DNA of 34,818 bases from a virus. The DNA lies in IMG/VR virus record IMGVR_UViG_3300045988_092923, positions 1 through 34,818 of that record; one strand, given 5' to 3'. The stretch's first letter is position 1; each line of letters opens with the position of its first letter. The translations under genes and the position numbers were made by a program. Of this stretch, positions 3,439-34,818 are shown piece after piece. Under the pieces are notes generated by a model. It made no database searches and was not told the origin of the DNA. It saw only the letters and a list, made by a program, of their open reading frames with translations.

Positions 3439-4200
3439 CTATCGCGTCTTTGGCGCGTACTTTCCAAGTCCCAGAACCTTGTCAACCTCTTCGTCTCCAG
3501 TGCTCTGGTAGTAATAATCGGCGTCTATCTTCTTGTCGAATCCGCTCGTTGTTTCACGTGAAACCTTCTTGATGCTTCTATCGCGTCTCGCCCAGTTCCG
3601 AATCGTCGCCAGATGGTTCTTGTAGCTCTTTCCAGTAGAAGCCATGTAGGCGCTGAGCCTTTCAATTCTCTCTTCCCAGTCCGTGGGGAACTCGGCTTTG
3701 AGCTTCTCCAAATCGGTATCGCTGAGAAGGACGTTGGAGTATTCGCCGTACTTGTGGCGCGTCTCCTTCTTCGGTGCCTCCATATCTGGTTTATTAGGTG
3801 TGGTTACATCTGTGTTTATATCTGGTATAGGTTCGCCCTCGTGGGCATTTTCATTTTCCCTGTAGGCAAAATTCATTTGCCCTTTTGTACAAATGGAAAG
3901 TCCCTTTTCGGCAAGTGCATACCACCTCGTGCGGTCATAGGCCGACTTGTTGTAGTTGCCGACCAGAATCATCCCGCCATCTTCCAGCTTCTTCAACGCT
4001 CCGCGAATCTGTTTGTCAGTGAGGTATGGAAACAGCTCAGCAAATGCCCTGACCGAGTTGTATGTCCAGTACCTGCCGTCGTGGAAGTTTGTCTCGTTGG
4101 CGCGGTTGTGCTCAATCCAGTACGCGAGGTTCTGGAAGATGATTGCCGCATTGACCCCGTACTCTTTGGCGATTTGCGGGTCGAACATGTGTAGTGCCAT
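3439..4200 (-). CDS. DnaD-like / phage replisome organizer replication protein
   Basis: The N-terminal winged-helix-like segment is GVNAAIIFQNLAYWIEHNRANETNFHDGRYWTYNSVRAFAELFPYLTDKQIRGALKKLEDGGMI. The C-terminal segment YKNHLATIRNWARRD is typical of DnaD-domain proteins. The gene sits adjacent to the DnaC-like loader. Confidence 0.75.
   Translation of the reverse strand: MALHMFDPQIAKEYGVNAAIIFQNLAYWIEHNRANETNFHDGRYWTYNSVRAFAELFPYLTDKQIRGALKKLEDGGMILVGNYNKSAYDRTRWYALAEKGLSICTKGQMNFAYRENENAHEGEPIPDINTDVTTPNKPDMEAPKKETRHKYGEYSNVLLSDTDLEKLKAEFPTDWEERIERLSAYMASTGKSYKNHLATIRNWARRDRSIKKVSRETTSGFDKKIDADYYYQSTGDEEVDKVLGLGKYAPKTR
3550..3565. promoter_or_regulatory. parS-like site 1 (TGTTTCACGTGAAACc, 15/16 to the consensus parS)
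   Basis: The 14-bp perfect palindrome GTTTCACGTGAAAC lies at 3551-3564. It is inside the DnaD-like CDS, where it encodes VSRET in a linker. Confidence 0.7.
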
Positions 4201-4225
4201 AGCCGAAAACTCCCTCGGTAAGTGA

Positions 4226-4261
4226 AAGCCCCGTCACAGGTAGCGGCTGCGACGGGGCTTT
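4226..4261. other. Stable GC-rich hairpin in the leader of the replication genes (terminator/attenuator-like)
   Basis: AAAGCCCCGTC (4226-4236) pairs with GACGGGGCTTT (4251-4261). There is a T-run on the plus side (tctattttt) but only TTT on the minus side. The loop segment GGTAGCGGC (4239-4247) is complementary to GCCGCTACC at 4307-4315. Confidence 0.5.
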
Positions 4262-4328
4262 CTATTTTTCATGCCGTGAAGGCTTGAAAACTATTTTAGC
4301 TGCAAGGCCGCTACCCTCGCATATCCAT

Positions 4329-4357
4329 ATTATAGCATCACGATTCCTCGATGTTGA
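4329..4357 (-). promoter_or_regulatory. Putative promoter with extended -10: TCAACA (4352-4357), 17 nt, TGcTATAAT (4329-4337)
   Basis: Minus strand reads aTCAACAtcgaggaatcgtgaTGcTATAATatgg. It overlaps the 3' end of the DUF1064 gene, upstream of the hairpin and the DnaD-like gene. Confidence 0.5.
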
Positions 4358-4682
4358 TGTGGTTGAGGTACGCCATCAATTTTTTCTTGAGGCGGTACTC
4401 TTGAGTTTTAATGCCCTTAACGTCCTCGACTACCTGCTTTCCGTCTCGGTAATAAACGAAGTCGGCGATGTACCTCATGCCCCTGTACTTCACCCCGTCG
4501 CACTCGAAGCTCGGCAGAATCTCGAAGGGCACCTGAAGGCGAAGCCCCTGAATCCTTCCAGCATCCTGCATGTCGCGGAGCTTGACGTATCGCTTCGCTT
4601 CCTTGGCACTGTCGAACTCGATTCCGTCAACGACCGTCTTCTTCGCGTGATATTTACTTGCCCGTCGAGCCAAAGCCGTCAT
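4338..4682 (-). CDS. DUF1064-domain protein (YqaN-like, putative nuclease/resolvase fold)
   Basis: KYHAKKTVVDGIEFDSAKEAKRYVKLRDMQDAGRIQGLRLQVPFEI...YIADFVYY matches the DUF1064 pattern. The start MTALARR follows the RBS ggagaggggagATG. Confidence 0.7.
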   Translation of the reverse strand: MTALARRASKYHAKKTVVDGIEFDSAKEAKRYVKLRDMQDAGRIQGLRLQVPFEILPSFECDGVKYRGMRYIADFVYYRDGKQVVEDVKGIKTQEYRLKKKLMAYLNHINIEES

Positions 4683-5064
4683 CTCCCCTCTCCGAGTCCT
4701 CAAGCTCGTCAACGCGCTCGAAACCCACGTAGGCGCATGGCATGATTACCAGCTGCGTTACCTTGTCACCGCGCAGAACGTGATATGGCGCGTCGCTGTG
4801 GTTGTAGAGCTTTACCTTGATTGGCCCCGTGTATCCCTCGTCTATGACTCCCTCGGACGTGATTCCATGTCTCGTGTTGAGTCCAGACTTGCTCTTGAGC
4901 ATCCCAACATAGCCGTGCGGCAGCTGGATATGGACTCCCGTGTCGATGACGCGAGAACCCCTCGCTGGAACCATCGCGTCAATCGGCGAGCGCAGGTCCG
5001 CCCCAGCGTCCGTCTCGTGTGCCCTCACTGGCATGAATGACCCTGCGTCTAGCTTAATCTTCAC
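4654..5064 (-). CDS. dut: dUTP diphosphatase (trimeric dUTPase)
   Basis: Motifs seen are AGADL, GVIDEGYTG, RGDKVTQLV and the C-terminal RGDDGFGSTG. The GTG start (VKIKLDAGS...) follows gggagggaagagc. The track ORF N-terminal extension to 5256 overlaps the upstream gene and is rejected. Confidence 0.9.
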   Translation of the reverse strand: MKIKLDAGSFMPVRAHETDAGADLRSPIDAMVPARGSRVIDTGVHIQLPHGYVGMLKSKSGLNTRHGITSEGVIDEGYTGPIKVKLYNHSDAPYHVLRGDKVTQLVIMPCAYVGFERVDELEDSERGDDGFGSTGK

Positions 5065-5281
5065 GCTCTTCCCTCCCGAAGCTGTATCGTGCGTACCTGA
5101 CCTTCTGGCCGTACCGATTGAATGCGTGCTCTCGCTCCTTGTGTATGTCGTGACCATCGTCCCTGAGCGCGAACACGACAGCCGCGAGCCTTGTGACTCC
5201 CAAGTCCTTGAACGCATCGACTGGCGTGATGCTACCGAACTCTCGTATGTAGTCAAGGACCATCTGTTTCTGACTTGCCAT
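5054..5281 (-). CDS. Winged-helix DNA-binding protein (HTH_39-like)
   Basis: The 75-aa protein reads ...GSITPVDAFKDLGVTRLAAVVFALRDDGHDIHKEREHAFNRYGQKVRYARY, resembling the PF14090-type pattern. The RBS is gagaggggggaagcgATG. Confidence 0.5.
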   Translation of the reverse strand: MASQKQMVLDYIREFGSITPVDAFKDLGVTRLAAVVFALRDDGHDIHKEREHAFNRYGQKVRYARYSFGREERED

Positions 5282-5295
5282 CGCTTCCCCCCTCT

Positions 5296-5610
5296 CTAAA
5301 CGTAGCTCCTTCCGATTATCTTCATCCAGTCATCGAGCGACCATCCGTAGTGCTCCATTGCTCGCCGCTGCGACACCTCCTGCAGGTACGTCTCGAACGG
5401 GCGATTGAAGTGAACACCGTAGCTCGCCATGTTGTGCGCATCTGGAGGCAGGAACACGTACAAGCCGTACTCGATTGACTTCTGTCGGTTCGGCCCGTGA
5501 AAGACCTCGTGCCGCACCAACCACGGCTCGCGCTCGTCGAACCACTGAATCATGATGCCGTGGCGCTCGTCGTACCACTCGCCGCACCCCAGAACGCTGT
5601 GCTCCTTCAT
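5296..5610 (-). CDS. Hypothetical protein (104 aa)
   Basis: The start MKEHSVLGCGEWYDERHG... follows the RBS ggagggcgaggaATG, with an ATGA overlap on the upstream stop. Confidence 0.65.
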   Translation of the reverse strand: MKEHSVLGCGEWYDERHGIMIQWFDEREPWLVRHEVFHGPNRQKSIEYGLYVFLPPDAHNMASYGVHFNRPFETYLQEVSQRRAMEHYGWSLDDWMKIIGRSYV

Positions 5611-6077
5611 TCCTCGCCCTCCACGTACTTCAGATTTGCTATTTCCTCGCGCGTGAGCACGGATATGCACTGCGCTTCGCATTCCTCACGCGCCCCGTCG
5701 ATAAGGCGCGAGAACTCCGACGAGTCCATATGCGAGGAACCCTTGTAGACGCGGTAATGAGTGAACTCATGCCCTCCAGCGAATCCAGTGCCGATTTCCT
5801 CGAAGTATCGGAAGTATCCAGAAACGTCTATGTCGGAACGCACGCTCACAACCTCGTATGGGGCGTGCTCCCTCAGCATCCGAAAATGAAGCTCCGAGGT
5901 CGGTATCCTCAAGACCTTCCCGAGCTGGTTGAGCATCGACCAATAGTAGGCGTTCTGGGTGAGCGTGCGCTTGCGCTTGCGCTCCTTGATTTCGTACAGA
6001 CGTTCCTTGCTGTCGTGCGGCTGCTCGAAAAGCCAATGGATGATTTCCTCGGCTGTGCCAATCATGCCGCCAATCAT
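5607..6077 (-). CDS. NinB/Orf-like recombination mediator
   Basis: RTLTQNAYYWSMLNQLGKVL and GSSHMDSSEFSRLIDGAREE parallel lambda NinB RSLDQNRKLWACLGDVSRQV and GQSTSRMRVGEFAELLELI, recalled from memory. The gene sits in the recombination module next to SSB. Confidence 0.5.
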   Translation of the reverse strand: MIGGMIGTAEEIIHWLFEQPHDSKERLYEIKERKRKRTLTQNAYYWSMLNQLGKVLRIPTSELHFRMLREHAPYEVVSVRSDIDVSGYFRYFEEIGTGFAGGHEFTHYRVYKGSSHMDSSEFSRLIDGAREECEAQCISVLTREEIANLKYVEGEE

Positions 6078-8393: not shown

Positions 8394-8449
8394 TGTCTAG
8401 GCAAACGTGGTAACACCAACGTTTAGCGGGGAAAGGAGTCGAATTTTGG

Positions 8450-8758
8450 ATGGCATTTACTGACAATTTGCAGGCGCTTATGAGCGCAAAAGGGATATCC
8501 CGTCGAAGATTGGCGAAAGAGTGCGGGATAAGCCCCAGCGCGGTGAACAGCTGGTTCAACCGCAGCGCCGAGAACATCAGCTTGCAGACGCTGAAGAAGC
8601 TGTCTGATTACTTCGGGATAAGCATCGAAGAGCTTGTCCACGGTACGAAGACGCGGCACGAGCTGGTATTCACGAGCGATACATACACGGAAGATGAACT
8701 CGCGCAGATTAAGCAATTCGCGCACTTTTTAATAGGACAACGAGAAAGGAATGAATGA
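8450..8758 (+). CDS. XRE-family HTH repressor (CI-like, no peptidase domain)
   Basis: LQALMSAKGISRRRLAKECGISPSAVNSWFNR...LQTLKKLSDYFGISIEELV is an XRE-type HTH. It is one of only two plus-strand genes and is co-oriented with the integrase. Confidence 0.8.
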   Translation: MAFTDNLQALMSAKGISRRRLAKECGISPSAVNSWFNRSAENISLQTLKKLSDYFGISIEELVHGTKTRHELVFTSDTYTEDELAQIKQFAHFLIGQRERNE

Positions 8759-8761
8759 TGG

Positions 8762-10264
8762 ATGGCATACGCAATGTACCTGCGCAAGTCACGCGCAGAC
8801 GAGGAATTGGGATACGAAAACACGCTTGAACGACACGAGGAAATGCTGCGCAACCTCGCGGCTCAGACTGGAATACACGTCGATGAATCGCACATATACC
8901 GCGAGATTGTCTCGGGTGAGAGCATCGAAGCCCGCCCACAGATGCAAAGGCTGCTGAAGGCAGTCGAGATGGGACTTTACACGGGCGTTCTGTGCATCGA
9001 GCTTGAACGTCTCAGCCGTGGGGACGGAGCCGACCAGCAGCGCATACTGAAGGCGTTTCAGTTTTCCGACACGAAGATAATCACGCTCACGAAAACATAT
9101 GACCTTGCTGGCGATGATTCTTTCGACGAGGAATTCTTTGAGTTCGGGCTCTTCATGAGCCGACGCGAGTACAAGATGATAAAAAAGCGCCTGTATCGCG
9201 GAAGGATACAAGCGCAGAAGGAAGGATATTTCATAGGGTCGCGCCCACCATACGGGTACGACAAGAAGCGAATCGGGAAAGGCTACGTGCTGGTGCCGAA
9301 CGAGAACGCGGAAGTCGTTCGATACATCTTCAGGAGGTACGCGCAATACGACACTGCGGCGAACATCCTGCATGACCTGAACAACATGGCAATACCTACA
9401 GTGACTGGGGCGAAATGGACGGCATACGCCATCCGCGAGGTCATTAAGAACCAGACGTACATCGGAAAGATAAACACGAAGACAGTCCGTTGCGAGAAGT
9501 CGATACGGGATGGGAAGGTCGTGCAAAAATGGCTCAACAACTACGAGCCAGTGACAGTCGAAGGAAGGCACGAGCCGATAGTTGATGAAGAGTTGTTCTG
9601 GAAGTGTCAGGAAGTCCGCGACAGCAAGAAGACGAGAACGAGGTCAGACCAGACGCTGAAAAACCCATTCGCGTCGATAATGTTCTGCAGCGTGTGCGGC
9701 AAGACGATGCGCAGAACCCACTACGATTACAAGGGCGAAAGAACGTTTTACTACGGATGCCAAACGTCACGATGCGAGACGAAGAACACCTTCACGCACG
9801 TCGTATATGACATGGTGATTGACGAACTCAAGAAGGAACTGGAACGACAGCAGGTAGTGCTCGCCGATTACGACACATCCCCAGAGCATGACGCGAGAAG
9901 GGACGAACTCGAAATGCTCAAGGCCGAACTCGGAAAGAAGTCGATGATGCTTGAAAGGGCGTGCGAAGCATACGAGACTGGAGTCTACGACCGACAGACA
10001 TACTTGGAGCGAGTCCAGAAGGTAAACGCAGCAAGGGCTGAGCTTCAGGCAAGGGTCGAGGACTTGGAGAAGAGCATCGATGAAAGCGAGGAAAGGCACG
10101 AGAAGGCGGTGCCGATTCTCACAAGGGTTGTCGAGGAAATGCACACCTTGGAGCCGAAGGAGCAGAACGACCTACTCAAGATGATTGTCGATAGAATCGA
10201 ATACGAAAAGACTGAGTCGGGCGCGGCGATAGAACCTACGCTCCGAATCAGTCTCAAAATATAG
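8762..10264 (+). CDS. Large serine recombinase (integrase)
   Basis: The N-terminal resolvase-type catalytic region is YLRKSRAD...RLSRGD. A recombinase domain follows. The zinc ribbon is CSVCGKTMRR...YYGCQTSRC, and a long C-terminal coiled coil completes the 500-aa protein. Confidence 0.9.
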   Translation: MAYAMYLRKSRADEELGYENTLERHEEMLRNLAAQTGIHVDESHIYREIVSGESIEARPQMQRLLKAVEMGLYTGVLCIELERLSRGDGADQQRILKAFQFSDTKIITLTKTYDLAGDDSFDEEFFEFGLFMSRREYKMIKKRLYRGRIQAQKEGYFIGSRPPYGYDKKRIGKGYVLVPNENAEVVRYIFRRYAQYDTAANILHDLNNMAIPTVTGAKWTAYAIREVIKNQTYIGKINTKTVRCEKSIRDGKVVQKWLNNYEPVTVEGRHEPIVDEELFWKCQEVRDSKKTRTRSDQTLKNPFASIMFCSVCGKTMRRTHYDYKGERTFYYGCQTSRCETKNTFTHVVYDMVIDELKKELERQQVVLADYDTSPEHDARRDELEMLKAELGKKSMMLERACEAYETGVYDRQTYLERVQKVNAARAELQARVEDLEKSIDESEERHEKAVPILTRVVEEMHTLEPKEQNDLLKMIVDRIEYEKTESGAAIEPTLRISLKI

Positions 10265-10476: not shown

Positions 10477-12231
10477 TCAAGCCGTCCTCTTCCACATGTA
10501 GACGGCAAGATAAGGCGGCATGTTGTTGTGCGCCTTGTTTCCACCAGTGTACAGCGTGTTTACGTTGCCGCTGTAGCCCCTCTTGTCGTTCGCCTGAACC
10601 GTCATTGACGAGGTTGCCCCGCCCGTGGTGTTGTAGTTGTCGAGCGTGTGGTTGTGCGACGGCATTTCGGACGTCGTGAGCTGGTGGGCAGCTTCTCCGC
10701 CCATGCTCCCAGCCGCGTAGGTGTCATCGGCACCAAGCAGGAACCTGCCCCAGATGCGCTCCCACGTCCCGCCGAACAATGCAGCTGGATTGGCATCGGT
10801 CACGCTCAGATAGATTGAGCCGACTGGGTAAGCCCCCTGAGCCGTGATCCATGCCGAATCTCCGAGCTGCAAAACGTCAGATTGGCTGGGCAGGCAGTTC
10901 ACACCGACGCTCGACTTCTTGGTGTCGATAAAAAACGCAGGGATGCCCTTTCCCAAAGTCAGGTTGTATTCTGTCGTTTCCAGCTTGTCAGAGATGGTCA
11001 CAACGAAGTCGTAGGCCGAATCCCTGTCGCACGTCAGCGTTGATTGGATTGAATCTTCCAGCTCGATTGGCGTTCCATAGCTAGAATCCGAAACCTTCTT
11101 GAACTTCGCGGAGATTGTCACGGCATTCTTGCCGTTCAGATACGAGTAGCGTGCGTGAGCCGTGATGTACGTCGTAGGCTCGAAGTTGTTCAGGCGATGA
11201 AGGTCAATGACGGCAGTCGGTGCGCTGTAATCATCGACGGTTACCTGAACCGATTTGATAGCAGTGAACCCACGGCTGTCGGTTGCCGTGACGGTCAGCT
11301 CCTGCGAATACGAGACGTCCACGGCTCCCAGCGAGACGGCCCCAGAACTCGTAACCGTCTTTGATACTCCACCGAACGCGATGGTGTAGCTCGCGATGGT
11401 CGCGCCCTTCTTTGCGGTCGCGGTCGGAACGTTCACGGTCAGCGTGGAATGGTTCTGGATGATGCGCGACTTGTCCCCAGTCACCGCCACGGTCGCAGCG
11501 TTGGTGTCCTCATACGAGACGGCACCGAGTTCGGGCGCTGCGTCAACGACGTTCATCTTCCTGTCAGCGCGAGAATAGTAGGCCGTGCCGTCGATGGTCG
11601 TTTTCAGCGCGTATGTTACCTTCAGTGTCGGCGAATCGTTGCTCGCGTTTCTCAGGGTCGTGCGCTCAGAATCTGTGAGCTGCATCGTGTACGGACCGCC
11701 CGACCCGCTTATTGCGCCAGCCCTAGTAATGCTCCCGCCAGCGAACTCGATTGACAAATCGCACGCGAAAGACGATGGGTTGCTGTACGTCATCGTCGGG
11801 TTCGTCTCGTCGGTGAAGTCGTTGGCCGTGACGATGGTCGCGTTCCTAGCTATCCTGTCGAGCGAGATGGAGCCTGACGCGACGATGCTCCCGACCTTAG
11901 TGCCGTCGATTGTCGCGTTTAGGTTGAACGTGTCGGTTAGCTGCGCTGTCTTGGTCCCGTCCGCGTCATGCGAAACCCTGTGGACGGTCGTACCGAGAAG
12001 CACTGAGCCGCCCTTCTGGTTGATTGCCCCAGACGTATAGCCCTGTGAAACCACTCCAACAGAACACGTGTTTGCACGCGAAGCGATGTTCAGCGAGTAC
12101 GCCGAGCCGATGACGAGCGTGTGCTTGACCGTCACATCCGAGTAGTTCCCCGCTGCGTTCTGGACCGCGCTCCAATCAGCGCGAAGAGTGTAGCCCCGAT
12201 ACGAGCCTGTGATGCTTCCGCTTGATGCCAT
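10477..12231 (-). CDS. Tail fibre / receptor-binding protein with C-terminal phage tail-collar-like domain
   Basis: It is the last gene of the tail module. The C-terminus PVGSIYLS...LFGGTWERIWGRFLLG...GGEAAHQLTTSEMPSHNH...GGNKAHNNMPPYLAVYMWKRT matches the collar/MdpB-type pattern. The N-terminal SLxxDW..Q region resembles DUF859-type siphovirus proteins. Confidence 0.75.
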   Translation of the reverse strand: MASSGSITGSYRGYTLRADWSAVQNAAGNYSDVTVKHTLVIGSAYSLNIASRANTCSVGVVSQGYTSGAINQKGGSVLLGTTVHRVSHDADGTKTAQLTDTFNLNATIDGTKVGSIVASGSISLDRIARNATIVTANDFTDETNPTMTYSNPSSFACDLSIEFAGGSITRAGAISGSGGPYTMQLTDSERTTLRNASNDSPTLKVTYALKTTIDGTAYYSRADRKMNVVDAAPELGAVSYEDTNAATVAVTGDKSRIIQNHSTLTVNVPTATAKKGATIASYTIAFGGVSKTVTSSGAVSLGAVDVSYSQELTVTATDSRGFTAIKSVQVTVDDYSAPTAVIDLHRLNNFEPTTYITAHARYSYLNGKNAVTISAKFKKVSDSSYGTPIELEDSIQSTLTCDRDSAYDFVVTISDKLETTEYNLTLGKGIPAFFIDTKKSSVGVNCLPSQSDVLQLGDSAWITAQGAYPVGSIYLSVTDANPAALFGGTWERIWGRFLLGADDTYAAGSMGGEAAHQLTTSEMPSHNHTLDNYNTTGGATSSMTVQANDKRGYSGNVNTLYTGGNKAHNNMPPYLAVYMWKRTA

Positions 12232-19800: not shown

Positions 19801-19816
19801 TGTTTCACGTGAAACA
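19801..19816. promoter_or_regulatory. parS-like site 2 (TGTTTCACGTGAAACA, perfect 16/16)
   Basis: The site is intergenic. It lies exactly between the G-T stop (TAG at 19817-19819) and the tape-measure RBS (ggaggtga). Confidence 0.75.
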
Positions 19817-23855: not shown

Positions 23856-24500
23856 TTAGCCCTCCTTCATTTCGGCAATCATTGCCTTGTACTTGCTGTA
23901 ATCAATCTCTTGCTTGGTTTCACGTGAAACATCGTCGGACTTGTCCTCTCGAGTCTCTGGCGTTTCACGTGAAACATCGTGCTCGGCAACGTTGGCGTCG
24001 AACGCGTCAGATACGAAAATCCTGTCCTCGGAATCGTCGCTCCTAGCCATGATGAGCGTGCCGTCGTAGGCTGGCACCTTGGAACGGTCGAGAATGGACA
24101 CCTCTTCGAGGTCGAGGTCGTTCACCTCGCGCGTCAGCATGCCGTTCTCGACGCCGTTCTTGACGTCTCGGTCATAGAACCCGAAAGACCAGCCAACCAA
24201 ATCGCCGCGCTTTGCCTTCTCCATGACGTCCTTGTCAGTGATGGTGCACTTCGCGCGAAGTCCGATGTTGTCCTCGGTGAGTTCGAGGTTGCCCTGCTTG
24301 GTGCTTCCCAGGTCGCGCTGCCAGTCGTGGTTGAGCAGCACGTGAACATCGTCGTTGCGCTTCAGGGCACGCGCGAACGCCCCCTTCTTGATTCGCTCGA
24401 TGAACTTCCCCATACGCGACATGAGCGGCTTACTGTTGCGCTCGACGGCATTGACGTAGCCCTCGATTTCGACGCTATCCTCACGAATGTTAATCTGCAT
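23856..24500 (-). CDS. Prohead protease, HK97 family (S78)
   Basis: MQINIREDSVEIEGYVNAVERNSKPL...LLNHD...LGS..GNLEL.ED..GL is the typical pattern. The start follows agggggtgaaatcaATG. The acidic C-terminal tail contains two parS-like sites. Confidence 0.85.
   Translation of the reverse strand: MQINIREDSVEIEGYVNAVERNSKPLMSRMGKFIERIKKGAFARALKRNDDVHVLLNHDWQRDLGSTKQGNLELTEDNIGLRAKCTITDKDVMEKAKRGDLVGWSFGFYDRDVKNGVENGMLTREVNDLDLEEVSILDRSKVPAYDGTLIMARSDDSEDRIFVSDAFDANVAEHDVSRETPETREDKSDDVSRETKQEIDYSKYKAMIAEMKEG
23916..23931. promoter_or_regulatory. parS-like site 3 (gGTTTCACGTGAAACA, 15/16)
   Basis: The site lies inside the protease CDS tail, where it encodes VSRET. The 19 nt GTTTCACGTGAAACATCGT are identical to site 4. 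Confidence 0.7.
23961..23976. promoter_or_regulatory. parS-like site 4 (cGTTTCACGTGAAACA, 15/16)
   Basis: The site lies inside the protease CDS tail, 45 bp centre-to-centre from site 3, and encodes VSRET. Confidence 0.7.
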
Positions 24501-25997: not shown

Positions 25998-27689
25998 TTA
26001 GATAACCTGAATCGTGAATCCGCCCTGTCCGAAAATCACGTCCTGCTGTAGCAAGTATACGGCGTTTATCAGGGCAACGACCATATCGACCTTGCCCTTG
26101 CTCTTCTTCTTGTGGACATACATGTTTTTGTTGGTGTCGTATGAGCAGCGGGCATTCTGGAAGTTGATTTCGAGCAGCTTGTTGTCTGTGTACTCGAACT
26201 CGCCGCAAAGAATCTTCTCCTTCAGAAGCTTCGTCGGCGGATGGAGCACGGAGCTGTGCTGCCTGATTTCGACCGTATTGTAGCCAGCGCCTTCCAGCTT
26301 CTGCGCCGTGCTGAGAGCGTTCCATCGGTCGTAGCCGATTGCCTGCACCTGCACGCCGAACCTCTTCTCGATGCCGAGAATGAAGTCCTCGACAACCTTG
26401 TAGTCGATAACCCTGTCCCCGCATGCTATGCACTTCCCAGCGCGGATGAACTCGTTGTAGTCGATTTTCTCGTATGCGTTCTTCTCGGGAATGCGGCCCT
26501 CTGGCACGAAAGCGAAAACATCGGCGAGGATGTTGCCGTCATCGTCTGCGGCAACCATCGCCACGGCAGTGTTGTCGTTCGTCTCCGAAAGGTCTAGCCC
26601 CAGATACACGACGCGGCCGCGCCAGTCGATGTTCGCAACCTTGCAAGCCTGCACGTCAGCAACGTCGATGAACGTCTCCGTGCCCTGTCCCTGATAGATG
26701 ATATTGCAGTGCTTGGTGAGAAAGTTCTCGCGTGCCGATTCGACCGCGATAGCGTAGGCGCGTTTCTTCTTCAGGTCTTCCCATATTTCGGGTATCTCCA
26801 AGCTGACTGGGTTCGCCTGACGCATGACCAAATCGTCCGTCATCCAGTCCTTGGTTTCGTCTGGCTCGTAGAGCAATGCGAACAACGTATCGTCATCGGC
26901 AATTCCGTCGAGAACCTTCTTGGCGTACGCAACCTCGTCCTCGAACGGGTTGTCGATGGTCGGATACTTGGTCGAGATGATGAAGCCAAGTTTGTTCAGG
27001 ATGTTGAGCTGGCCCGACTTCATGGCTTCGATGGCATAGCTGGTCGGCAGCGCCCCAACCTCGTCCGCGCAGAACGCGCTTGGAAGTCTGCCGTCCATCC
27101 TCGAAGTCGAATAGCTCAGGGGGACGTATGTCGAACTCTTCGGCTTGAAGGTGATGTAGTCGCGCAGAATCTTGAAACGTTTGTTTCCCTTGTACTCGTA
27201 CACCAGAGGTGACGAGCGCAGCGTCTGCGATATGGCTTCGCGAATCTGCCTTGACAGTGCGCCGTCTGGTGCGACCGAGAAGAACTCAGCGAATCGCGGC
27301 TCGGTCAGCATGAGGATGATGAAGATGGTCGCGACGGTATAAGTCTTGAAGTTCTTGCGTGCGATTTCCAGCAGCCCGATTTCGTAGCGCCGCTTCTCGG
27401 GATTGTCGCGGTAGACGGTGCACAGGACTGCCGTGTACAGCAACCATTGGTACCCAGTCGTGCACTCGTAAAGCGTCTGCCCAGCCTTCAGGCCCTTGGG
27501 CATGACGAGCAGCTTGAGAATCGACTCCATCTGGCGAATCTTTGCGTCGCTCACGAGGTACTTGTCGCTCTTGCCGTCGCATACGTCCATCCAAAGGCGC
27601 ATCTGCTTCTTGACGTACTTCGGGGTGGTGTCCGCGTCTATCGTGCGCTCGCAGTACTCGTAGCCCCTATTCCTCGCCATCGCTGTCAC
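25998..27689 (-). CDS. terL: Terminase large subunit (Terminase_1 type)
   Basis: The 563-aa protein starts ...YEYCERTIDADTTPKYVKKQMRLWMDVCDGK, typical of this family. It has ATPase and nuclease halves (LGLDLSETNDNTAVAMV). An alternative ATG lies at 27680. Confidence 0.9.
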   Translation of the reverse strand: MTAMARNRGYEYCERTIDADTTPKYVKKQMRLWMDVCDGKSDKYLVSDAKIRQMESILKLLVMPKGLKAGQTLYECTTGYQWLLYTAVLCTVYRDNPEKRRYEIGLLEIARKNFKTYTVATIFIILMLTEPRFAEFFSVAPDGALSRQIREAISQTLRSSPLVYEYKGNKRFKILRDYITFKPKSSTYVPLSYSTSRMDGRLPSAFCADEVGALPTSYAIEAMKSGQLNILNKLGFIISTKYPTIDNPFEDEVAYAKKVLDGIADDDTLFALLYEPDETKDWMTDDLVMRQANPVSLEIPEIWEDLKKKRAYAIAVESARENFLTKHCNIIYQGQGTETFIDVADVQACKVANIDWRGRVVYLGLDLSETNDNTAVAMVAADDDGNILADVFAFVPEGRIPEKNAYEKIDYNEFIRAGKCIACGDRVIDYKVVEDFILGIEKRFGVQVQAIGYDRWNALSTAQKLEGAGYNTVEIRQHSSVLHPPTKLLKEKILCGEFEYTDNKLLEINFQNARCSYDTNKNMYVHKKKSKGKVDMVVALINAVYLLQQDVIFGQGGFTIQVI

Positions 27690-28038
27690 CGTTGATTATC
27701 GCCATGAGCGGGTCGTAGTCTGAGTCGCGTTCCTCGTCCTCCTTGGCGAATCCCTTGATGATTTTCATGAGAGTGGTGACCGTGCGGTTGGCCGAGTCCG
27801 TAGTCTTGTTGTACTCGGTCACGGCTGGGTTCACGTAGATGTTGGCGCGACCCTTGACGTACTCCTTCGTAACGAGCGTTCCAGTCTCGCGGATTGCCGC
27901 TTCAAGCTCGGTGAGATTGTTGAGCTGCACCTGGTAGCGTTTGAACGTGGTCATGAAGAAGAAGTTTGTCTGTACGCCCGTCTCTTCTGCTATCTTCAGG
28001 ATTTCCTGCGCCTGCTCGTTAAGGCTTTTCTTTGCCAT
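27667..28038 (-). CDS. terS: Terminase small subunit, P27 family
   Basis: ...LVTKEYVKGRANIYVNPAVTEYNKTTDSANRTVTTLMKII is P27-like. The gene lies immediately upstream of terL with RBS cggaggtaggacATG. Confidence 0.8.
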   Translation of the reverse strand: MAKKSLNEQAQEILKIAEETGVQTNFFFMTTFKRYQVQLNNLTELEAAIRETGTLVTKEYVKGRANIYVNPAVTEYNKTTDSANRTVTTLMKIIKGFAKEDEERDSDYDPLMAIINGDSDGEE

Positions 28039-28041
28039 GTC

Positions 28042-28890
28042 CTACCTCCGTTTTCTGTATCTGTCGCTGATGATTTTCGGGACGCATTTGTTCCAATCTA
28101 CCCGATGGTGCATCCTTCGGTGGTGCGCACCCATCTCCGCAACCCTCACGGCCTGCGGCGCGACGATGACGCTGTAGAACGACTTGACGTATGTGCCGTA
28201 GTCGAGGTAAAGGGTTGTCATGCCTTCAGCATTCTTTTGGGTCTGCGCCTGCGTAATCTGCGTGTTGGTGATGGTGAAGAACAGCTTGCCTTGGTTCCCC
28301 AGCATGACGTAAGTGTTAGTATCCTCGTTCACCCTGCCGACGAATCGGAACGGTCTGTCGGTCTTCAGGAACCATACGTTCATTGCCTTGCGCGAAAGCC
28401 CTTGGTGGAAGAAACGATTTGCACCGCCTATCAGGTGACCGCCCTGCGCAAGAGCAACGGCAAGCGCACCGCTCGTGTCAAGGAACCCGAAGCAGTCCTC
28501 GAAGAGCCTGTCCAAATCGTCGCAGTACTTGCTCTTGAGCTGCGCACCACTCAGGAACCTGAACATGAAGTAGCCGTAATCGTCATCGAGGACAACGAAG
28601 TGGGCAAGGCCCAGCCGCTTCGCTATGTTGAAGCACTCGTTGCGGGCGTACACCACTCCGCGATGGTCTTCAACTGCGTCCGCCGTGTCCGTCCACTTTG
28701 CGACCTCGGACTTGTCGAACTGAATCACCATATCGCCGTAGCGGCTCTTGTACTCTTCCGCGCTATCGTCCTCGTTGTCGATGATGATGTACGTGTCACC
28801 GCTGTAGTTGCCCTTCTTCAGGGCATTGATGGTTGCGATGTTGTCTGGCCTTCCATGCGAGACGATGAACACCGCGTAATCACTCGCCAT
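28042..28890 (-). CDS. GT-A-like glycosyltransferase-fold protein, paralogue 2 (282 aa)
   Basis: The start MASDYAVFIVSHGRPD follows gggaggtggcgcaagaATG. YIIIDNEDDSAEEY and a DxD motif in HFVVLDDDYGYF resemble a GT-A Rossmann core. The protein is clearly paralogous to the upstream gene and has the basic tail RYRKRR. Confidence 0.5.
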   Translation of the reverse strand: MASDYAVFIVSHGRPDNIATINALKKGNYSGDTYIIIDNEDDSAEEYKSRYGDMVIQFDKSEVAKWTDTADAVEDHRGVVYARNECFNIAKRLGLAHFVVLDDDYGYFMFRFLSGAQLKSKYCDDLDRLFEDCFGFLDTSGALAVALAQGGHLIGGANRFFHQGLSRKAMNVWFLKTDRPFRFVGRVNEDTNTYVMLGNQGKLFFTITNTQITQAQTQKNAEGMTTLYLDYGTYVKSFYSVIVAPQAVRVAEMGAHHRRMHHRVDWNKCVPKIISDRYRKRR

Positions 28891-29722
28891 TCTTGCGCCA
28901 CCTCCCGCTGACAATCTTCGGATAGAGAAGCGCCTTGCTCTTTCGCAGGCTCGTGCCGTCCCTCTTGACGATGACCTTCAGTCCGCTCGGGTCGATTATC
29001 ACTGAGTAGAAGTCGCGCACGTACTGCTTGTTGTCATCGTACAGGCTGTGAAGACCGCCGTCGTTGGTTCCGCGCTGCGGTGAATTCTTCGTTATTGCAT
29101 ATGCTTCGAGCATGACCTTCCCAGCATCCTTGCCAAGCAGCAGCGCGTTCATGTCCTCGTTGAGGATGCCGACGAACTTCAGCCTGTCACTGGCTCGAAC
29201 CACCAGCGCCTGGTTGATGTTCCAGCACATACCGTTCCCGTACACTCCCGCAAGCCCGCCTATGAGCGCACCGCTCGATGCGATGTTGAGCGACGTTACG
29301 CCCGTCGTTTCAAGGAACCCGACCATGGACTCGAACAGCCCATCGAAGTCGGTGACTGGTGCCGACACGAGCCTGCCGCCCTTGACGTACCTGAACGTGA
29401 ACTGGCTCAGGTCATCATCGAACATAGCGAAGTAGCTCAGCCCCAAATCGTCCGCGATGTCGTATGCTGCGTTCCTTGCGAACACGACGGAGCGAAGCTC
29501 GTCTTCGGTTGTCATGGTATCTACGCGCTTGGAGTACTCGCGCTTGTCGAACACGATGACGCTGTCACCGTAAAGCCGTTCGTACTCTGCCCTCTGCTCG
29601 TCAAGGTCATCGATGATGAGATACGCCTTGCCAGAATATCCGTGCTTCTCCAACTCATGGAACGTCACTTGGTCGTGCGCCCTTCCATTCGTGAGAATCA
29701 GCACCGCGAAGTCGCTACGCAT
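28880..29722 (-). CDS. GT-A-like glycosyltransferase-fold protein, paralogue 1 (280 aa)
   Basis: The start MRSDFAVLILTNGRAHD follows ggtgaggacgATG and overlaps the ParB-like stop. The protein carries YLIIDDLDEQRAEY and a DxD in YFAMFDDDLSQF. By eye it is roughly 35-40% identical to paralogue 2 over the N-terminal 110 aa. Confidence 0.5.
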   Translation of the reverse strand: MRSDFAVLILTNGRAHDQVTFHELEKHGYSGKAYLIIDDLDEQRAEYERLYGDSVIVFDKREYSKRVDTMTTEDELRSVVFARNAAYDIADDLGLSYFAMFDDDLSQFTFRYVKGGRLVSAPVTDFDGLFESMVGFLETTGVTSLNIASSGALIGGLAGVYGNGMCWNINQALVVRASDRLKFVGILNEDMNALLLGKDAGKVMLEAYAITKNSPQRGTNDGGLHSLYDDNKQYVRDFYSVIIDPSGLKVIVKRDGTSLRKSKALLYPKIVSGRWRKNGE

Positions 29723-30461
29723 CGTCCTCACCGCTCATGAAGTCGATGTCCTCGGCAAGCTTCGCGTATCCCTTGGCGATTGCGTCATCGACGTCGATTA
29801 TGACGAGCGCCGAGTCCTCCATAAGCTCCTGCATCTCTGGCGTCGCGTTGGCGTAGTACTCAGCGACGTTCCTGTAGTTGAAGGCATAGTGTCGTGTGGC
29901 TGCCTTGATTAGGAACTCGCGTTCCTCGGGCGTGACGTTCGAGTCCTGAATCCTCATGACCAGCTCATTGGCCTTCGAATCGTCAACCAGCTCGTCGATG
30001 GATGGGCACTCGCCAGTCGGCTCGTACTGCGGTATGTTCACCTTCTTGGTGTAGGTATCGTCAGCCTGCGGCTCGTCCTCTTCCAGCTCTTCGAAGTCGA
30101 ACCCGAAGTCAGACATGTCGATGTCCTCGATGCCATCAAGCTCGATGCCCAGCTTCGCCATGTCCCACTGTGCAAGCTCGCCAGTCTTGTTGTCGGCCAG
30201 ACGGAACGCCTTCACCTGCTCGGGCGTCAAATCGTCCGCCACGATGACGGGAACCTGCTTCAACCCCAGCTTGTGCGCAGCCTTCAGGCGTGTATGCCCG
30301 TTGATGATGACGTTCTCGCCGTCAACGACGATTGGAACCTTGAAGCCGAACTCCTTGATGCTAGCAGCCACCGCATCGACCGCGTTGTCGTTCAATCGCG
30401 GGTTGTTCGCGTACGGAATCAGTGAATCGACGTCCATATACGTCACTTTGGTCTTGTTCAT
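29715..30461 (-). CDS. ParB N-terminal-domain (ParB/Srx) protein
   Basis: VDSLIPYANNPRLNDNAVDAVAASIKEFGFKVPIVVDGENVIINGHTRLKAAHKLG is a ParBc-type N-terminal domain. An acidic linker follows, then a helical C-terminal region (EEREFLIKAATRHYAFNYRNVAEYY). No canonical GERRxR box or obvious ParB HTH was recognised. The RBS is gagaaaggagcaatcagggcATG. Confidence 0.75.
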   Translation of the reverse strand: MNKTKVTYMDVDSLIPYANNPRLNDNAVDAVAASIKEFGFKVPIVVDGENVIINGHTRLKAAHKLGLKQVPVIVADDLTPEQVKAFRLADNKTGELAQWDMAKLGIELDGIEDIDMSDFGFDFEELEEDEPQADDTYTKKVNIPQYEPTGECPSIDELVDDSKANELVMRIQDSNVTPEEREFLIKAATRHYAFNYRNVAEYYANATPEMQELMEDSALVIIDVDDAIAKGYAKLAEDIDFMSGEDDA

Positions 30462-30510: not shown

Positions 30511-30731
30511 TGTAGAAAACTTGCCGATAATTGGCTTATTTGAATGATAATTGTAGAAAAGTTTCCAACATTGTAGAAAATCCAAGTTTCCAACATTGTA
30601 GAAAATCCAAAAAACCCCAGCAGATGAAAAACTTTTTTTCTTCTCTAGGCAGGTTAGATAGCCCGCAGGCTCAGTTTTCGACACTTTCGACAGGGGGGGG
30701 ATTGTAGAAAAGTTTTCGACATTGTAGAAAA
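30510..30731. repeat. Iteron-like array: ATTGTAGAAAA x5 plus CTGTAGAAAA x1
   Basis: Copies lie at 30510-19 (degenerate), 30550-60, 30570-80, 30595-605, 30701-11 and 30721-31. The associated sub-repeats are GTTTCCAAC x2 and TTTTCGAC / TTTCGAC x3. A central segment of about 95 bp is A/T-tract-rich. Confidence 0.9.
30693..30700. repeat. G8 homopolymer tract abutting iteron R4
   Basis: Read directly as cagggggggg attgtagaaaa. Confidence 0.9.
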
Positions 30732-30767: not shown

Positions 30768-31151
30768 CTACCGCGTAGCTCCCCGAATCCTCTTCGCCGC
30801 AAGCCCTCTCAGGTATCCCTTGGACAGCTCCCCATCGTCCGCCATCCTGTGATGCTTCCTGCACAGGCATATGAGGTTGTCATCCTCGAGCAGTCCGTCT
30901 GGGTCTTCGCGTAGCTTGTCTATGTGGTGGACCTCAAGCCCCTGCGTGGTGACCTTCCCTTGGTCCCTGCACACCTCGCACATCCAGTGCGCATCGTCTC
31001 GCACCTGTAGGCTCTTCCTCTTCCACCTTGAGGTGAAGCGCAGCCTGTCCGCACCAGTCCTCTCGTACCTGTATGTAGGCTTCTTCCTCGGGCATGGCTG
31101 GTCGTATGGGTGAATCCGCCCACATCGTGGGCAGGCCCTGTATGCCCCCAT
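30768..31151 (-). CDS. HNH endonuclease (packaging-associated type)
   Basis: CPRCGRIH...C, then EVHHIDKLREDPDGLLEDDNLICLCRKHH, is an HNH motif. The RBS is gagggggaggtgattcgATG. HK97-like cos phages commonly encode such an HNH near the terminase genes. Confidence 0.85.
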   Translation of the reverse strand: MGAYRACPRCGRIHPYDQPCPRKKPTYRYERTGADRLRFTSRWKRKSLQVRDDAHWMCEVCRDQGKVTTQGLEVHHIDKLREDPDGLLEDDNLICLCRKHHRMADDGELSKGYLRGLAAKRIRGATR

Positions 31152-31289: not shown

Positions 31290-32117
31290 CTAGAATCGGC
31301 CTGCGTTGAGCGCTTCCTGCATCTTCCTCACCGTGTTACTGGGCGCTCCAAGGTAGCCGTCCGCATTGAATCCGTAGTGACGTTCCAGTGCGTTGATTGT
31401 CTGCCGTCCAAGGATGCCGTCCGCATAGACCCCAAGCGCCCTCTGCATCTTGGTAACGAGCTGCGACCCCTGCGGATTCCTCACCCACTCGAAGCCGCCA
31501 GTGCAGGCATTGAGAATCGAGCGGTTGCCCGCGTACTGCGAGGAAACCACGCCATCAATCGGAGTCCCGAAGTGCCTTTGCAGCGCCCTTGTGGTGGCAG
31601 GTCCCCAGTAGCCATCGACGTCAATCTTTCCGCTAGGCTGTGCGGGCCTTGGCTCCGTCTGCGCTCCCGTGTATCGAAGTATGCAGTCCCAGCCATGACG
31701 ATATACGTAGACCCTTCGCTCGTTGGTCTCCCCGCCAGTCTGGTCACCTGCTCGGCCACCACTGGCCTTGCCGCGCTCGTCAATGGATGCCTGAGCGATG
31801 ATGGCGTTCCTTCCATGACCTCGCACAACCATGCACACGTGATGCGTGTCGTTGAGCAGGATGTCGCCAGGCTGAAGCGTGCTCAGGTCAGGCGGAAGTC
31901 GCTTCCAGCCGTGCTTTGTGAGGTTCGCCGAAAGGTTGCCAGTGTAGGTCGCTCCGCCAGTCGCGAACCCAGCCTGACGCAGGGCGTAGATTACGAGCGA
32001 GCTGCAATCGCACTCGCCGCCGTTGCGAATGTCCCAGCGGTTGCTCTGGTCGTATCCGAGCGACCACACGCGAGCTGCCTTGTCCATCACCGCGATTGCC
32101 TTACTGATGCTTGGCAT
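31290..32117 (-). CDS. Endolysin: NlpC/P60- or CHAP-like cysteine peptidase plus C-terminal peptidoglycan-binding repeats
   Basis: The catalytic-like residues are ECDCSSLVIYALRQAG and DTHHVCMVV. The C-terminus has two DG..G..T..ALQR/ALER repeats (PG_binding_1-like). The gene lies downstream of the holin. An alternative start lies at 32153. Confidence 0.8.
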   Translation of the reverse strand: MPSISKAIAVMDKAARVWSLGYDQSNRWDIRNGGECDCSSLVIYALRQAGFATGGATYTGNLSANLTKHGWKRLPPDLSTLQPGDILLNDTHHVCMVVRGHGRNAIIAQASIDERGKASGGRAGDQTGGETNERRVYVYRHGWDCILRYTGAQTEPRPAQPSGKIDVDGYWGPATTRALQRHFGTPIDGVVSSQYAGNRSILNACTGGFEWVRNPQGSQLVTKMQRALGVYADGILGRQTINALERHYGFNADGYLGAPSNTVRKMQEALNAGRF

Positions 32118-32271
32118 GCCGAACCTCGCTTTCGTAAACGTCGTGCTCCACATGAAGGCAGCGAGGGCACTGCCAGTCCTGACGCCTTTTGCCCTCGCCT
32201 GCCGACCTTCTGACCTCTACCATCGGAGCGCCGCACATGATGCACGTCCTCTTCTCTGGCAGACTACGCAT
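32101..32271 (-). CDS. Possible zinc-ribbon protein (56 aa) between holin and endolysin
   Basis: MRSLPEKRTCIMCGAPMVEVRRSAGEGKRRQDWQCPRCLHVEHDVYESEVRHAKHQ contains a CxxC...CxxC pair. Its start overlaps the holin stop, and its stop overlaps the endolysin start. Confidence 0.4.
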   Translation of the reverse strand: MRSLPEKRTCIMCGAPMVEVRRSAGEGKRRQDWQCPRCLHVEHDVYESEVRHAKHQ

Positions 32272-33009: not shown

Positions 33010-33075
33010 CTTGCTGATACTAGTATACACCTATACAATGCGAAGTGAAGCGAGAAATTGGGATTTTTTTCAACC
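33010..33075 (-). promoter_or_regulatory. Promoter cassette P3: -35 TTCACT (33044-33049), 16 nt, -10 TATACT (33022-33027), with an upstream A-tract
   Basis: Minus strand reads gaaaaaaatcccaatttctcgcTTCACTtcgcattgtataggtgTATACTagtatcagcaag. The stretch ATAGGTGTATACTAGTATCAGCAAG is identical to P2. Confidence 0.65.
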
Positions 33076-34650: not shown

Positions 34651-34818
34651 CACTCCACGCCCCCGTCCATCGCGTCGGCGATGCGGTCAAGCTCGCGCAG
34701 GTCCATGTGCTCGTCGTTTCGAGCACCCTCGACCCAGGAGCGCAGGCGCTCGGCGAGAATGCATGGGCGGCGCAGGTCACTTGGAAGACGCGCTGTCAAC
34801 TCGTCACCCTGACGCACG
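34650..34818 (-). CDS. 3' part of the junction-spanning 134-aa gene (same gene as 1..325)
   Basis: Hand translation gives ...LAERLRSWVEGARNDEHMDLRELDRIADAMDGGVE*, with TGA at 34650-34652. Confidence 0.6.
   Translation of the reverse strand, partial: VRQGDELTARLPSDLRRPCILAERLRSWVEGARNDEHMDLRELDRIADAMDGGVE
34730..34818. repeat. Terminal direct repeat, copy B (identical to 1..89)
   Basis: Read directly; see copy A. Confidence 0.95.

Follow-up and report, generated by a model that had tools for sequence, protein, structure and literature searches.

A gene for a ParB-like protein and a gene for a TET-Associated Glycosyltransferase (TAGT) together form an obligate, widespread and syntenic cassette that lies routinely just upstream of the terminase genes terS and terL. 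We describe this cassette from IMG/VR virus record IMGVR_UViG_3300045988_092923, whose positions 1 to 34,818 make up the window analysed here, and in which the ParB-like gene is followed by two TAGT genes, termed TAGT-A and TAGT-B. By analogy with characterised enzymes of the same family, we give about an even chance to the reading that this is an orphan, dioxygenase-independent ParB-TAGT cassette, a late phage module that would glycosylate DNA just before it is packaged. More broadly, we infer that the cassette is a dioxygenase-independent branch of the phage DNA-hypermodification systems that combine ParB, 5mYOX and glycosyltransferase (GT) genes. The genes concerned are, in transcription order:

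29715-30461, minus strand: ParB-like (ParB_N) protein, 248 amino acids (aa), isoelectric point (pI) 4.2; PF02195, phrog_620

28880-29722, minus strand: TAGT-A, a GT-A glycosyltransferase of 280 aa with its ATG at 29722; PF20691, phrog_842

28042-28890, minus strand: TAGT-B, a GT-A glycosyltransferase of 282 aa with its ATG at 28890; PF20691, phrog_842

27667-28038, minus strand: terS, small terminase subunit, 123 aa; phrog_13845 (E 3e-47), weak match to Terminase_4 (E 1.4e-3)

25998-27689, minus strand: terL, large terminase subunit; TerL_ATPase and TerL_nuclease matched on the called gene

The cassette shares one tightly packed operon with terS, which lies directly upstream of terL and overlaps it. 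The ParB stop and the TAGT-A start are joined in ATGCGTAG, an 8-nucleotide (nt) overlap with GGTGAGGA just before it, and the TAGT-A stop and the TAGT-B start in ATGGCGAGTGA, an 11-nt overlap with GGGAGGTGG just before it; the sequences ahead of both overlapping starts are Shine-Dalgarno-like, of the GGAGG type. At the last junction, 3 nt lie between the TAGT-B stop codon TAG and the ATG of terS, and a GGAGG is located within the 3' end of TAGT-B. Independent gene calls on the source contig gave the same three cassette genes. The original prediction, made from the letters of this stretch, had described a translationally coupled three-gene block between an HNH endonuclease gene and terS, with overlaps of 8 and 11 nt and with terS beginning just after the last stop, and the open reading frames (ORFs), their translations and the junction sequences all agree with that description. 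It had also taken the block to be an insertion that separates the HNH gene from terS; the block is indeed present, but there is nothing unusual about its position, which is that of a widespread syntenic ParB-TAGT cassette.

This breadth emerges from a comparison of relatives. In the protein collection searched, TAGT-B has 4287 relatives at E<=1e-5 and the ParB-like protein has at least 7969. The survey set consisted of 72 IMG/VR loci encoding TAGT-B relatives with 39-95% identity, and among these loci we found 65 pairs in which a ParB gene lies directly upstream of a TAGT gene, the two ORFs overlapping in 62 of the 65. At the loci without a ParB gene, the TAGT gene, or a TAGT-A copy upstream of it, runs to the end of the contig. 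No ParB-TAGT fusion protein was present among the fetched loci. The pair, usually followed by terS and terL, occurs in the Lactobacillus phages phi jlb1, c5 and phiLdb (in phiLdb the order after ParB is TAGT, a small ORF and terL), and it is likewise found in lambdoid phages of Escherichia coli and Salmonella, in Nocardia phage NTR1, in the haloarchaeal virus HHTV-2 and on several unrelated gut phage backbones. The terminases downstream come from at least four families: TerL_ATPase, Terminase_3, Terminase_6 and the T7 type. The neighbourhoods of homologues thus display a conserved ParB-TAGT pairing beside terminase genes.

In E. coli, the cassette consists of the Rac-type gene ynaK (ParB/Srx) and an adjacent gene for a TAGT-family 'hypothetical protein', located downstream of trkG and upstream of terminase genes. 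It is carried by 1580 of 5426 complete genomes (~29%), with at least 80% coverage in 889 of them, and Escherichia phage vB_EcoS-673R7 (locus L005) has it at 4217-5933. A literature search on E. coli ynaK found no functional study.

Profile scores place both paralogues clearly in the TAGT family, which was reportedly defined by Iyer et al. in 2013. Against a cutoff of 27.5 bits, PF20691 matches TAGT-A with 77.8 bits (E 1.4e-21) and TAGT-B with 132.2 bits (E 3e-38), and phrog_842, annotated as 'beta-glucosyl-HMC-alpha-glucosyltransferase', matches them with E 2.8e-38 and E 5.5e-63, respectively. The two proteins align with each other over their full length (37% identity over 282 aa, E 3e-61). 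In a 55-sequence alignment that includes both of them, R14, D102, D104, N188, E189 and D190 are invariant and D103 is nearly so; these columns correspond to the R...DDD...ED active-site motif of the characterised enzyme class, with T or M in the position after ED versus Y or F in the motif given by Pyle et al. (bioRxiv 10.1101/2023.12.21.572611). For TAGT-B, the AlphaFold2 (AF2) model predicts with high confidence a GT-A Rossmann-like fold, with a predicted local distance difference test score (pLDDT) of 85.4 and a predicted template-modelling score of 0.87. When compared with the Protein Data Bank (PDB) by Foldseek, the model retrieves GT-A enzymes, with TarP as the best match (E 1.2e-6, identity only 14%) and GnT-I, K4CP, SpsA, ColGalT1 and SunS among the others. 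It also superposes over its full length on predicted viral TAGT-domain proteins, with template-modelling (TM) scores of 0.86-0.89. A profile search of PDB sequences returned no solved TAGT relative, neither NCBIfam nor PADLOC contains a model matching either TAGT, and the C-terminal 82 aa of TAGT-B have no match in Pfam or the PDB. Over their last 40 aa, TAGT-A and TAGT-B have pI values of 10.7 and 11.6. All of this accords with the original prediction of two paralogous proteins of about 280 aa with basic tails and a DxD-type GT-A core, now assigned to the TAGT type; the motifs on which that prediction relied (AVFIVSHGR/AVLILTNGR, YIIIDNEDD/YLIIDDLDE and VVLDDDY/AMFDDDL) are all present in the translations.

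The partner of these enzymes carries a ParB/Srx nucleoside triphosphatase-fold N-domain at about residues 1-110 (PF02195, 31.3 bits versus a cutoff of 26.3; the protein matches phrog_620 with E 1.4e-64), as had been proposed for a protein of 248 aa at this place. A GHTR motif, invariant at residues 55-58, fits the GxxR of ParB N-domains. A disordered acidic linker follows at residues 124-144, and the C-domain (about 150-230) is conserved, helical and well predicted in the AF2 model, with no match in Pfam or the PDB. Foldseek comparison of this model retrieves Noc, ParB, KorB, Srx (sulfiredoxin) and SerK, in each case through the N-domain only. On profile evidence, the N-domain is the same module with which phage and type II DNA methyltransferases begin, the association from which the earlier suggestion of a DNA-modification role had started. 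Residues 2-136 match phrog_498 (DNA methyltransferase) with E 2e-44 over positions 31-170 of its 633 only, and residues 6-128 match PADLOC MTase_II with E 1.9e-27 over positions 10-139 of its 436 only; with the matched profiles covered in their N-terminal parts alone, no methyltransferase domain is fused to ParB_N. The assignment agrees with a survey of ParB-fold fusions that includes prophage-enriched phage ParB-N6/N4 DNA methyltransferases (Kaljevic et al. 2025, PMC12704722). Those fusions have a homologous N-domain, whereas the ParB-like protein here has as its catalytic partner a glycosyltransferase from a separate gene that is translationally coupled to its own. In phage PMBT4, the place immediately upstream of the TAGT gene, occupied by ParB in c5, is taken by a gene annotated as a methyltransferase.

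A role in partition finds no such correspondence. The canonical ParB model TIGR00180 is reached with 41.3 bits, below its cutoff of 58.45, and over residues 16-94 only. No helix-turn-helix (HTH) is recognisable in the protein by Pfam, TIGRFAM or Foldseek, and there is no ParA/CbiA-type gene among the called genes and Pfam matches of the whole genome. Because both HTH and ParA are missing, the protein is, by these sequence tests, not a partition ParB of a ParABS system.

To our knowledge, the phage DNA glycosylation pathways characterised so far all start from 5-hydroxymethylcytosine (5hmC), 5-hydroxymethyluracil (5hmU) or 5-hydroxycytosine. Such hydroxylated bases are made by a thymidylate-synthase homologue or by a TET-like dioxygenase. 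Since nt 1-89 of the window are identical to nt 34730-34818, the assembly, from a metagenome contig of 34,838 bp, closes into a complete circle of about 34,729 bp, and gene content can be read over the entire genome. Pfam and PHROG scans of this complete genome detected no TET/JBP dioxygenase (PF12851), no DNA methyltransferase and no thymidylate-synthase-like hydroxymethylase, so that the absence of such partners, first noticed from the sequence alone, extends to the whole circle. A hidden dioxygenase among the unassigned ORFs was considered and rejected, as all of these are <=200 aa and none gives a match of the double-stranded beta-helix type; an ORF of 253 aa is the DnaD-like replication initiator. 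The remaining genes mark the phage as a temperate siphovirus, among them those for a serine integrase, a Cro/CI-type repressor, Gp157, a Rad52-like annealase, a single-stranded DNA-binding protein, a NinB-like protein, a dUTPase, the DnaD-like initiator and a DnaC-like loader. The phage is from the gut (human-gut-type metagenomes), and its genome has a GC content of 56%. A megablast search of the locus against GenBank phages returned no match, and hence there is no close cultured relative there; exact peptide patterns searched across GTDB genomes matched a single locus in a metagenome-assembled genome.

The same absence recurs in the neighbourhoods of the surveyed relatives. By Pfam annotation of their representatives, 38 recurrent neighbour clusters comprise terminases, proteases, capsids, recombination proteins and replication proteins, and also Dam (3 loci) and a cytidylyltransferase-like protein (5 loci). 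No TET_JBP, C5-methyltransferase or ThyS was found among these 38 representatives, the singleton neighbours being only partly screened, and seven further neighbourhoods contained no TET_JBP in their precomputed Pfam annotation. One lineage (L088/L089) has a C5 DNA_methylase about 5 kb upstream of the cassette, and another has an N6_N4 methylase in the cassette neighbourhood.

As a separate observation on these neighbourhoods, the cytidylyltransferase-like gene (PF01467) flanks ParB-TAGT loci such as L069, L070 and L062, and an unassigned ORF of 403 aa (3 loci) flanks the cassette as well (in L069, positions 8396-9607 and 11004-11750). The two genes hint at dedicated synthesis of a sugar-nucleotide donor in those phages.

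Comparison of loci further separates the two TAGT copies. All 72 single-TAGT loci carry the B type, and only 54 relatives of TAGT-A are detectable, about a dozen of them close. In L092, where ParB and TAGT-B are 94% and 90% identical to their counterparts in the window, TAGT-A is a pseudogene (5435-6008) with a frameshift and loss of residues 98-187, including the DDD motif. In L094 (9262-10849), which has the same phage backbone, TAGT-A is absent. There, ParB and terS are 98% and 99% identical to those of the window and HNH is 86% identical, whereas TAGT-B is only 70% identical; on this pattern the glycosyltransferase stands out as a local hot spot of divergence whose flanks are almost identical. 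Tandem ParB-TAGT-TAGT also occurs on an unrelated backbone (L083), and other survey loci have the arrangement TAGT-ParB-TAGT or two ParB-TAGT pairs. A ratio of nonsynonymous to synonymous substitution rates (dN/dS) of 0.09 for TAGT-B, with 0.05 for terL and 0.02 for terS, indicates strong purifying selection on TAGT-B. From these comparisons, TAGT-B and ParB appear as the core of the cassette and TAGT-A as an accessory copy. The duplicated glycosyltransferase pair that had been proposed as the module is therefore real as a pair of paralogues, but the pair is not the functional unit: TAGT-B with ParB is the core, TAGT-A being an accessory that is degraded in L092 and missing from L094.

How this locus relates to known hypermodification systems is seen best in clusters of C5-methyltransferase, 5mYOX and glycosyltransferase genes (Burke et al. 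2021, PMC8256090; Pyle et al., bioRxiv 10.1101/2023.12.21.572611). Shared features are a JGT-like GT-A enzyme with the R...DDD...ED motif and TarP as best PDB match, tandem glycosyltransferases, which in those clusters build di- and trisaccharides, and a location that often adjoins ParB and terminase genes. Metavirome GT-A enzymes of this kind put mono- to trisaccharides on 5hmC that derives from a methyltransferase and 5mYOX (Pyle et al.), and ParB genes are enriched in hypermodification clusters (Pyle et al.; O'Toole et al., PMC13229309). The grouping of tailoring glycosyltransferases with a ParB that has no DNA-binding domain, by which such clusters are recognised, is found here too. Unlike those clusters, the present genome has neither a methyltransferase nor 5mYOX, hence no 5hmC or 5hmU handle, and in it ParB and the glycosyltransferase are joined by an obligate pairing and by translational coupling. 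Because 5mYOX is lacking, the locus falls, by its gene content, outside the known post-replicative hypermodification clusters as they are defined. That about 65% of glycosyltransferase contigs have no 5mYOX or ThyS nearby was recorded previously and left unexplained (Pyle et al., bioRxiv 10.1101/2023.12.21.572611).

Individual components have counterparts elsewhere. The thymine dioxygenase encoded beside ParB176, a ParB with no DNA-binding domain, depends on that protein for its activity on double-stranded DNA (O'Toole et al. 2026, PMC13229309). By description, ParB176 and the ParB-like protein are alike in having an N-domain that binds nucleoside triphosphates, a C-domain and a place beside an enzyme that modifies DNA or, here, is predicted to; the partner of ParB176 is a dioxygenase, whereas the putative partner here is a glycosyltransferase. 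The T2/T6 TAGT (beta-glucosyl-HMC-alpha-glucosyltransferase) adds a second glucose to glucosyl-5hmC (PMC13390438). It shares its Pfam and PHROG families with TAGT-A and TAGT-B, and its second-sugar role serves as a model for the possible role of TAGT-A. It is a distant relative, with no tblastn match at E 1e-5 and, for a homologue from Klebsiella phage PKO111, a Foldseek TM score of 0.66 at 12% identity. T-even phages also differ from this locus in making 5hmC before replication and in having no ParB partner. The trypanosomatid enzyme JGT glucosylates 5hmU in DNA (reported in Pyle et al., bioRxiv 10.1101/2023.12.21.572611) and, by published description, is of the same GT-A/TAGT lineage; it is eukaryotic and needs the thymine hydroxylases JBP1/2. 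In the papers of Pyle, O'Toole, Burke and Kaljevic there is no description of a ParB gene that is obligately paired with, and translationally coupled to, a TAGT gene, of the constant position of this pair ahead of the terminase genes, of its maintenance in complete genomes that have no dioxygenase, or of the division into core and accessory TAGTs.

The arrangement and coupling of the genes, their families, the catalytic motifs, the ParB-TAGT pairing, the selection on TAGT-B and the lack of any 5hmC/5hmU-producing enzyme are observations; DNA as the target, the late timing and the roles of the two TAGT copies are what we infer in the following scheme. The three cassette genes would be translated together with terS and terL from the start of the packaging operon. 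Because ParB176 is needed by its thymine dioxygenase, the HTH-less ParB-like protein may by analogy serve as a loader or activator through which the partner enzyme acts, late, on replicated phage double-stranded DNA. TAGT-B would then add the first sugar, taken from a nucleoside-diphosphate sugar of the host, and an intact TAGT-A would extend or diversify the glycan, like the second glycosyltransferase in T2/T6 and in the metavirome 5hmC clusters. In the next host, the resulting sugar coat might shield the packaged genome against restriction or against CRISPR nucleases. Because no hydroxymethylpyrimidine can be made, the acceptor would have to be something other than phage-made 5hmC or 5hmU. 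One specific form of the scheme, in which sugars are placed on phage DNA by direct N- or O-glycosylation of a canonical base or of another native position, with the ParB-fold protein as loader or activator on double-stranded DNA, we regard as doubtful.

Glycosylation of DNA by the cassette is favoured, by analogy, by the action of characterised TAGT-family and JGT-like enzymes on DNA. It is also favoured by the family membership, predicted GT-A fold and invariant catalytic residues of the paralogues, by the occurrence of the same ParB N-domain in fusions with phage DNA methyltransferases, by the ParB176 precedent, by the obligate pairing in viruses of bacteria and haloarchaea and beside four terminase families, and by the retention of the TAGT under the selection described above with no dioxygenase in the surveyed neighbourhoods. 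Several points weigh against it. Canonical DNA bases lack an acceptor hydroxyl, and we know of no precedent for the direct glycosylation of an unmodified base. Given that the singleton neighbours were screened in part, a rare divergent oxygenase might be present in other phages of the survey. TAGT-A as a whole is acidic (pI 5.5), its basic character being confined, like that of TAGT-B, to the C-terminal tail. Even in the ParB176 system no stable complex of ParB and enzyme was trapped (O'Toole et al., PMC13229309). Finally, the TAGT-like domain of animal GREB1, part of a large eukaryotic protein, is a protein O-linked N-acetylglucosamine transferase (PMC7968844); GREB1 is relevant here only as a caution that the TAGT family is not strictly DNA-specific.

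With GREB1 as a precedent from within the family, the cassette could instead glycosylate a protein, be it a virion protein, ParB itself, the terminase, the portal or a host protein, and we consider this unlikely. A protein acceptor would be in keeping with a genome that has no source of a 5-hydroxymethylpyrimidine, with a predicted fold that resembles the protein- or glycan-directed GT-A enzymes GnT-I, ColGalT1 and SunS, and with late expression alongside structural genes. Virion glycosylation is seen in mycobacteriophages, which provide a model for it. However, the cassette accompanies at least four unrelated terminase families and different capsid types, so no common structural-protein target is apparent, and elsewhere the ParB N-domain goes together with enzymes that modify DNA. 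The one candidate named earlier, the major tail protein with its possible O-glycosylation tail KVSSS, was rejected: this ending is not conserved in cassette-bearing relatives, the corresponding ends being KLKATE in L094 and MAKTGA in phage c5.

No greater probability attaches, in our view, to a borrowed 5hmC or 5hmU acceptor, which might be supplied by the DNA of competing phages (prophage exclusion or sensitising), by an unrecognised non-homologous oxygenase or by a host activity. All characterised members of the family use 5hmC, 5hmU or glucosylated 5hmC, and a C5 DNA methylase does lie upstream in some relatives (L088/L089). Anti-phage hypermodification by prophage glycosyltransferases has been raised before (Pyle et al., bioRxiv 10.1101/2023.12.21.572611), and thousands of contigs contain divergent, unannotated 5mYOX-like genes (O'Toole et al., PMC13229309). 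Yet a location at the head of a late packaging operon, with translational coupling to terS, speaks against expression in the lysogen; no unassigned ORF of the complete genome is above 200 aa and could be the dioxygenase, and TET_JBP was found in no surveyed neighbourhood. Transfer to an envelope glycopolymer, as by prophage-encoded TarP on wall teichoic acid, with lysogenic conversion or superinfection exclusion as its outcome, is very improbable, because the cassette is also present in E. coli and haloarchaeal viruses, where teichoic acids are lacking, and is obligately coupled to a ParB-fold protein, in a late operon; that TarP is the best structural match of TAGT-B carries little against this at such low identity, TarP being the top PDB match of glycosyltransferases proven on DNA as well.

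On the 5' side, the cassette operon is preceded by a repeat-rich region and two further minus-strand genes:

31290-32153, minus strand: endolysin gene, the most 5' gene listed in transcription order

30768-31151, minus strand: HNH endonuclease, 127 aa; PF01844 (E 3.8e-6), phrog_144 (E 5e-20)

30511-30731, minus strand: direct-repeat array of TTTTCTACAAT (GTYGRAAAC), with five exact 11-mers and one degenerate copy in two clusters

The HNH gene is the last before this intergenic region and gives it an HK97-type packaging context; portal, prohead protease and major capsid protein follow terL. Between the HNH and ParB_N genes lie 306 bp, in which repeat families D1-D3 can be distinguished. The five exact copies of TTTTCTACAAT all fall within 30550-30731, with 0.22 expected and none elsewhere in the genome, and a GC-rich inverted repeat (GGGGCGC...GCGCCCC) comes after the array, just before the ParB ribosome-binding site. 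The array may be a candidate cos, terS-binding or operator/regulatory region heading the cassette operon. The deposited linear record of phiLdb opens with ParB as its first annotated gene, 91 nt in from the left end; in the IMG/VR copy of phage c5 (L073), the genes likewise run ParB, TAGT, small ORF and terL, and they begin 48 nt from the end.

The genome also contains four matches, with 0-1 mismatch each, to the canonical parS consensus of bacterial chromosomes, TGTTTCACGTGAAACA:

3550-3565: parS-type site, host-type chromosomal consensus

19801-19816: parS-type site, host-type chromosomal consensus

23916-23931: parS-type site, host-type chromosomal consensus

23961-23976: parS-type site, host-type chromosomal consensus

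The 14-nt palindromic parS core is present in four exact copies, with a chance expectation of 0.01. The replication-initiator gene contains one site and the 3' end of the prohead protease gene two, and the remaining site lies just upstream of the ribosome-binding site of the tape-measure gene. Two of the four are retained in the close relatives L007, L008 and L011. That these sites belong to the cassette is improbable: L092 and L094 have no parS-type sites, despite ParB-like proteins that are 94-98% identical. The sites probably serve host ParB/SMC and not the HTH-less phage protein, and may recruit host ParB.

Two further observations concern other parts of the genome. A DUF7659 protein (E 9e-20) is encoded by an ORF at 966-1562; the related backbone L094 has it too, and it does not accompany the ParB-TAGT cassette on other backbones. 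The 15-mer TAGTATACACCTATA occurs in three exact copies in the early region (915-929, 2158-2172 and 33021-33035), with none expected by chance, and these copies are possibly early promoters or operator sites.

Direct glycosylation, if true, would be a DNA modification of a new class, shared by thousands of temperate phages and by ~29% of the complete genomes of E. coli. The identity of the acceptor would decide what the cassette signifies for its family: it would reveal either a new DNA modification chemistry together with a second client for ParB-fold activators, or another target for a family that has been assumed to act on DNA. With the cassette carried by cultured viruses of Lactobacillus, E. 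coli and haloarchaea, this question is directly testable.

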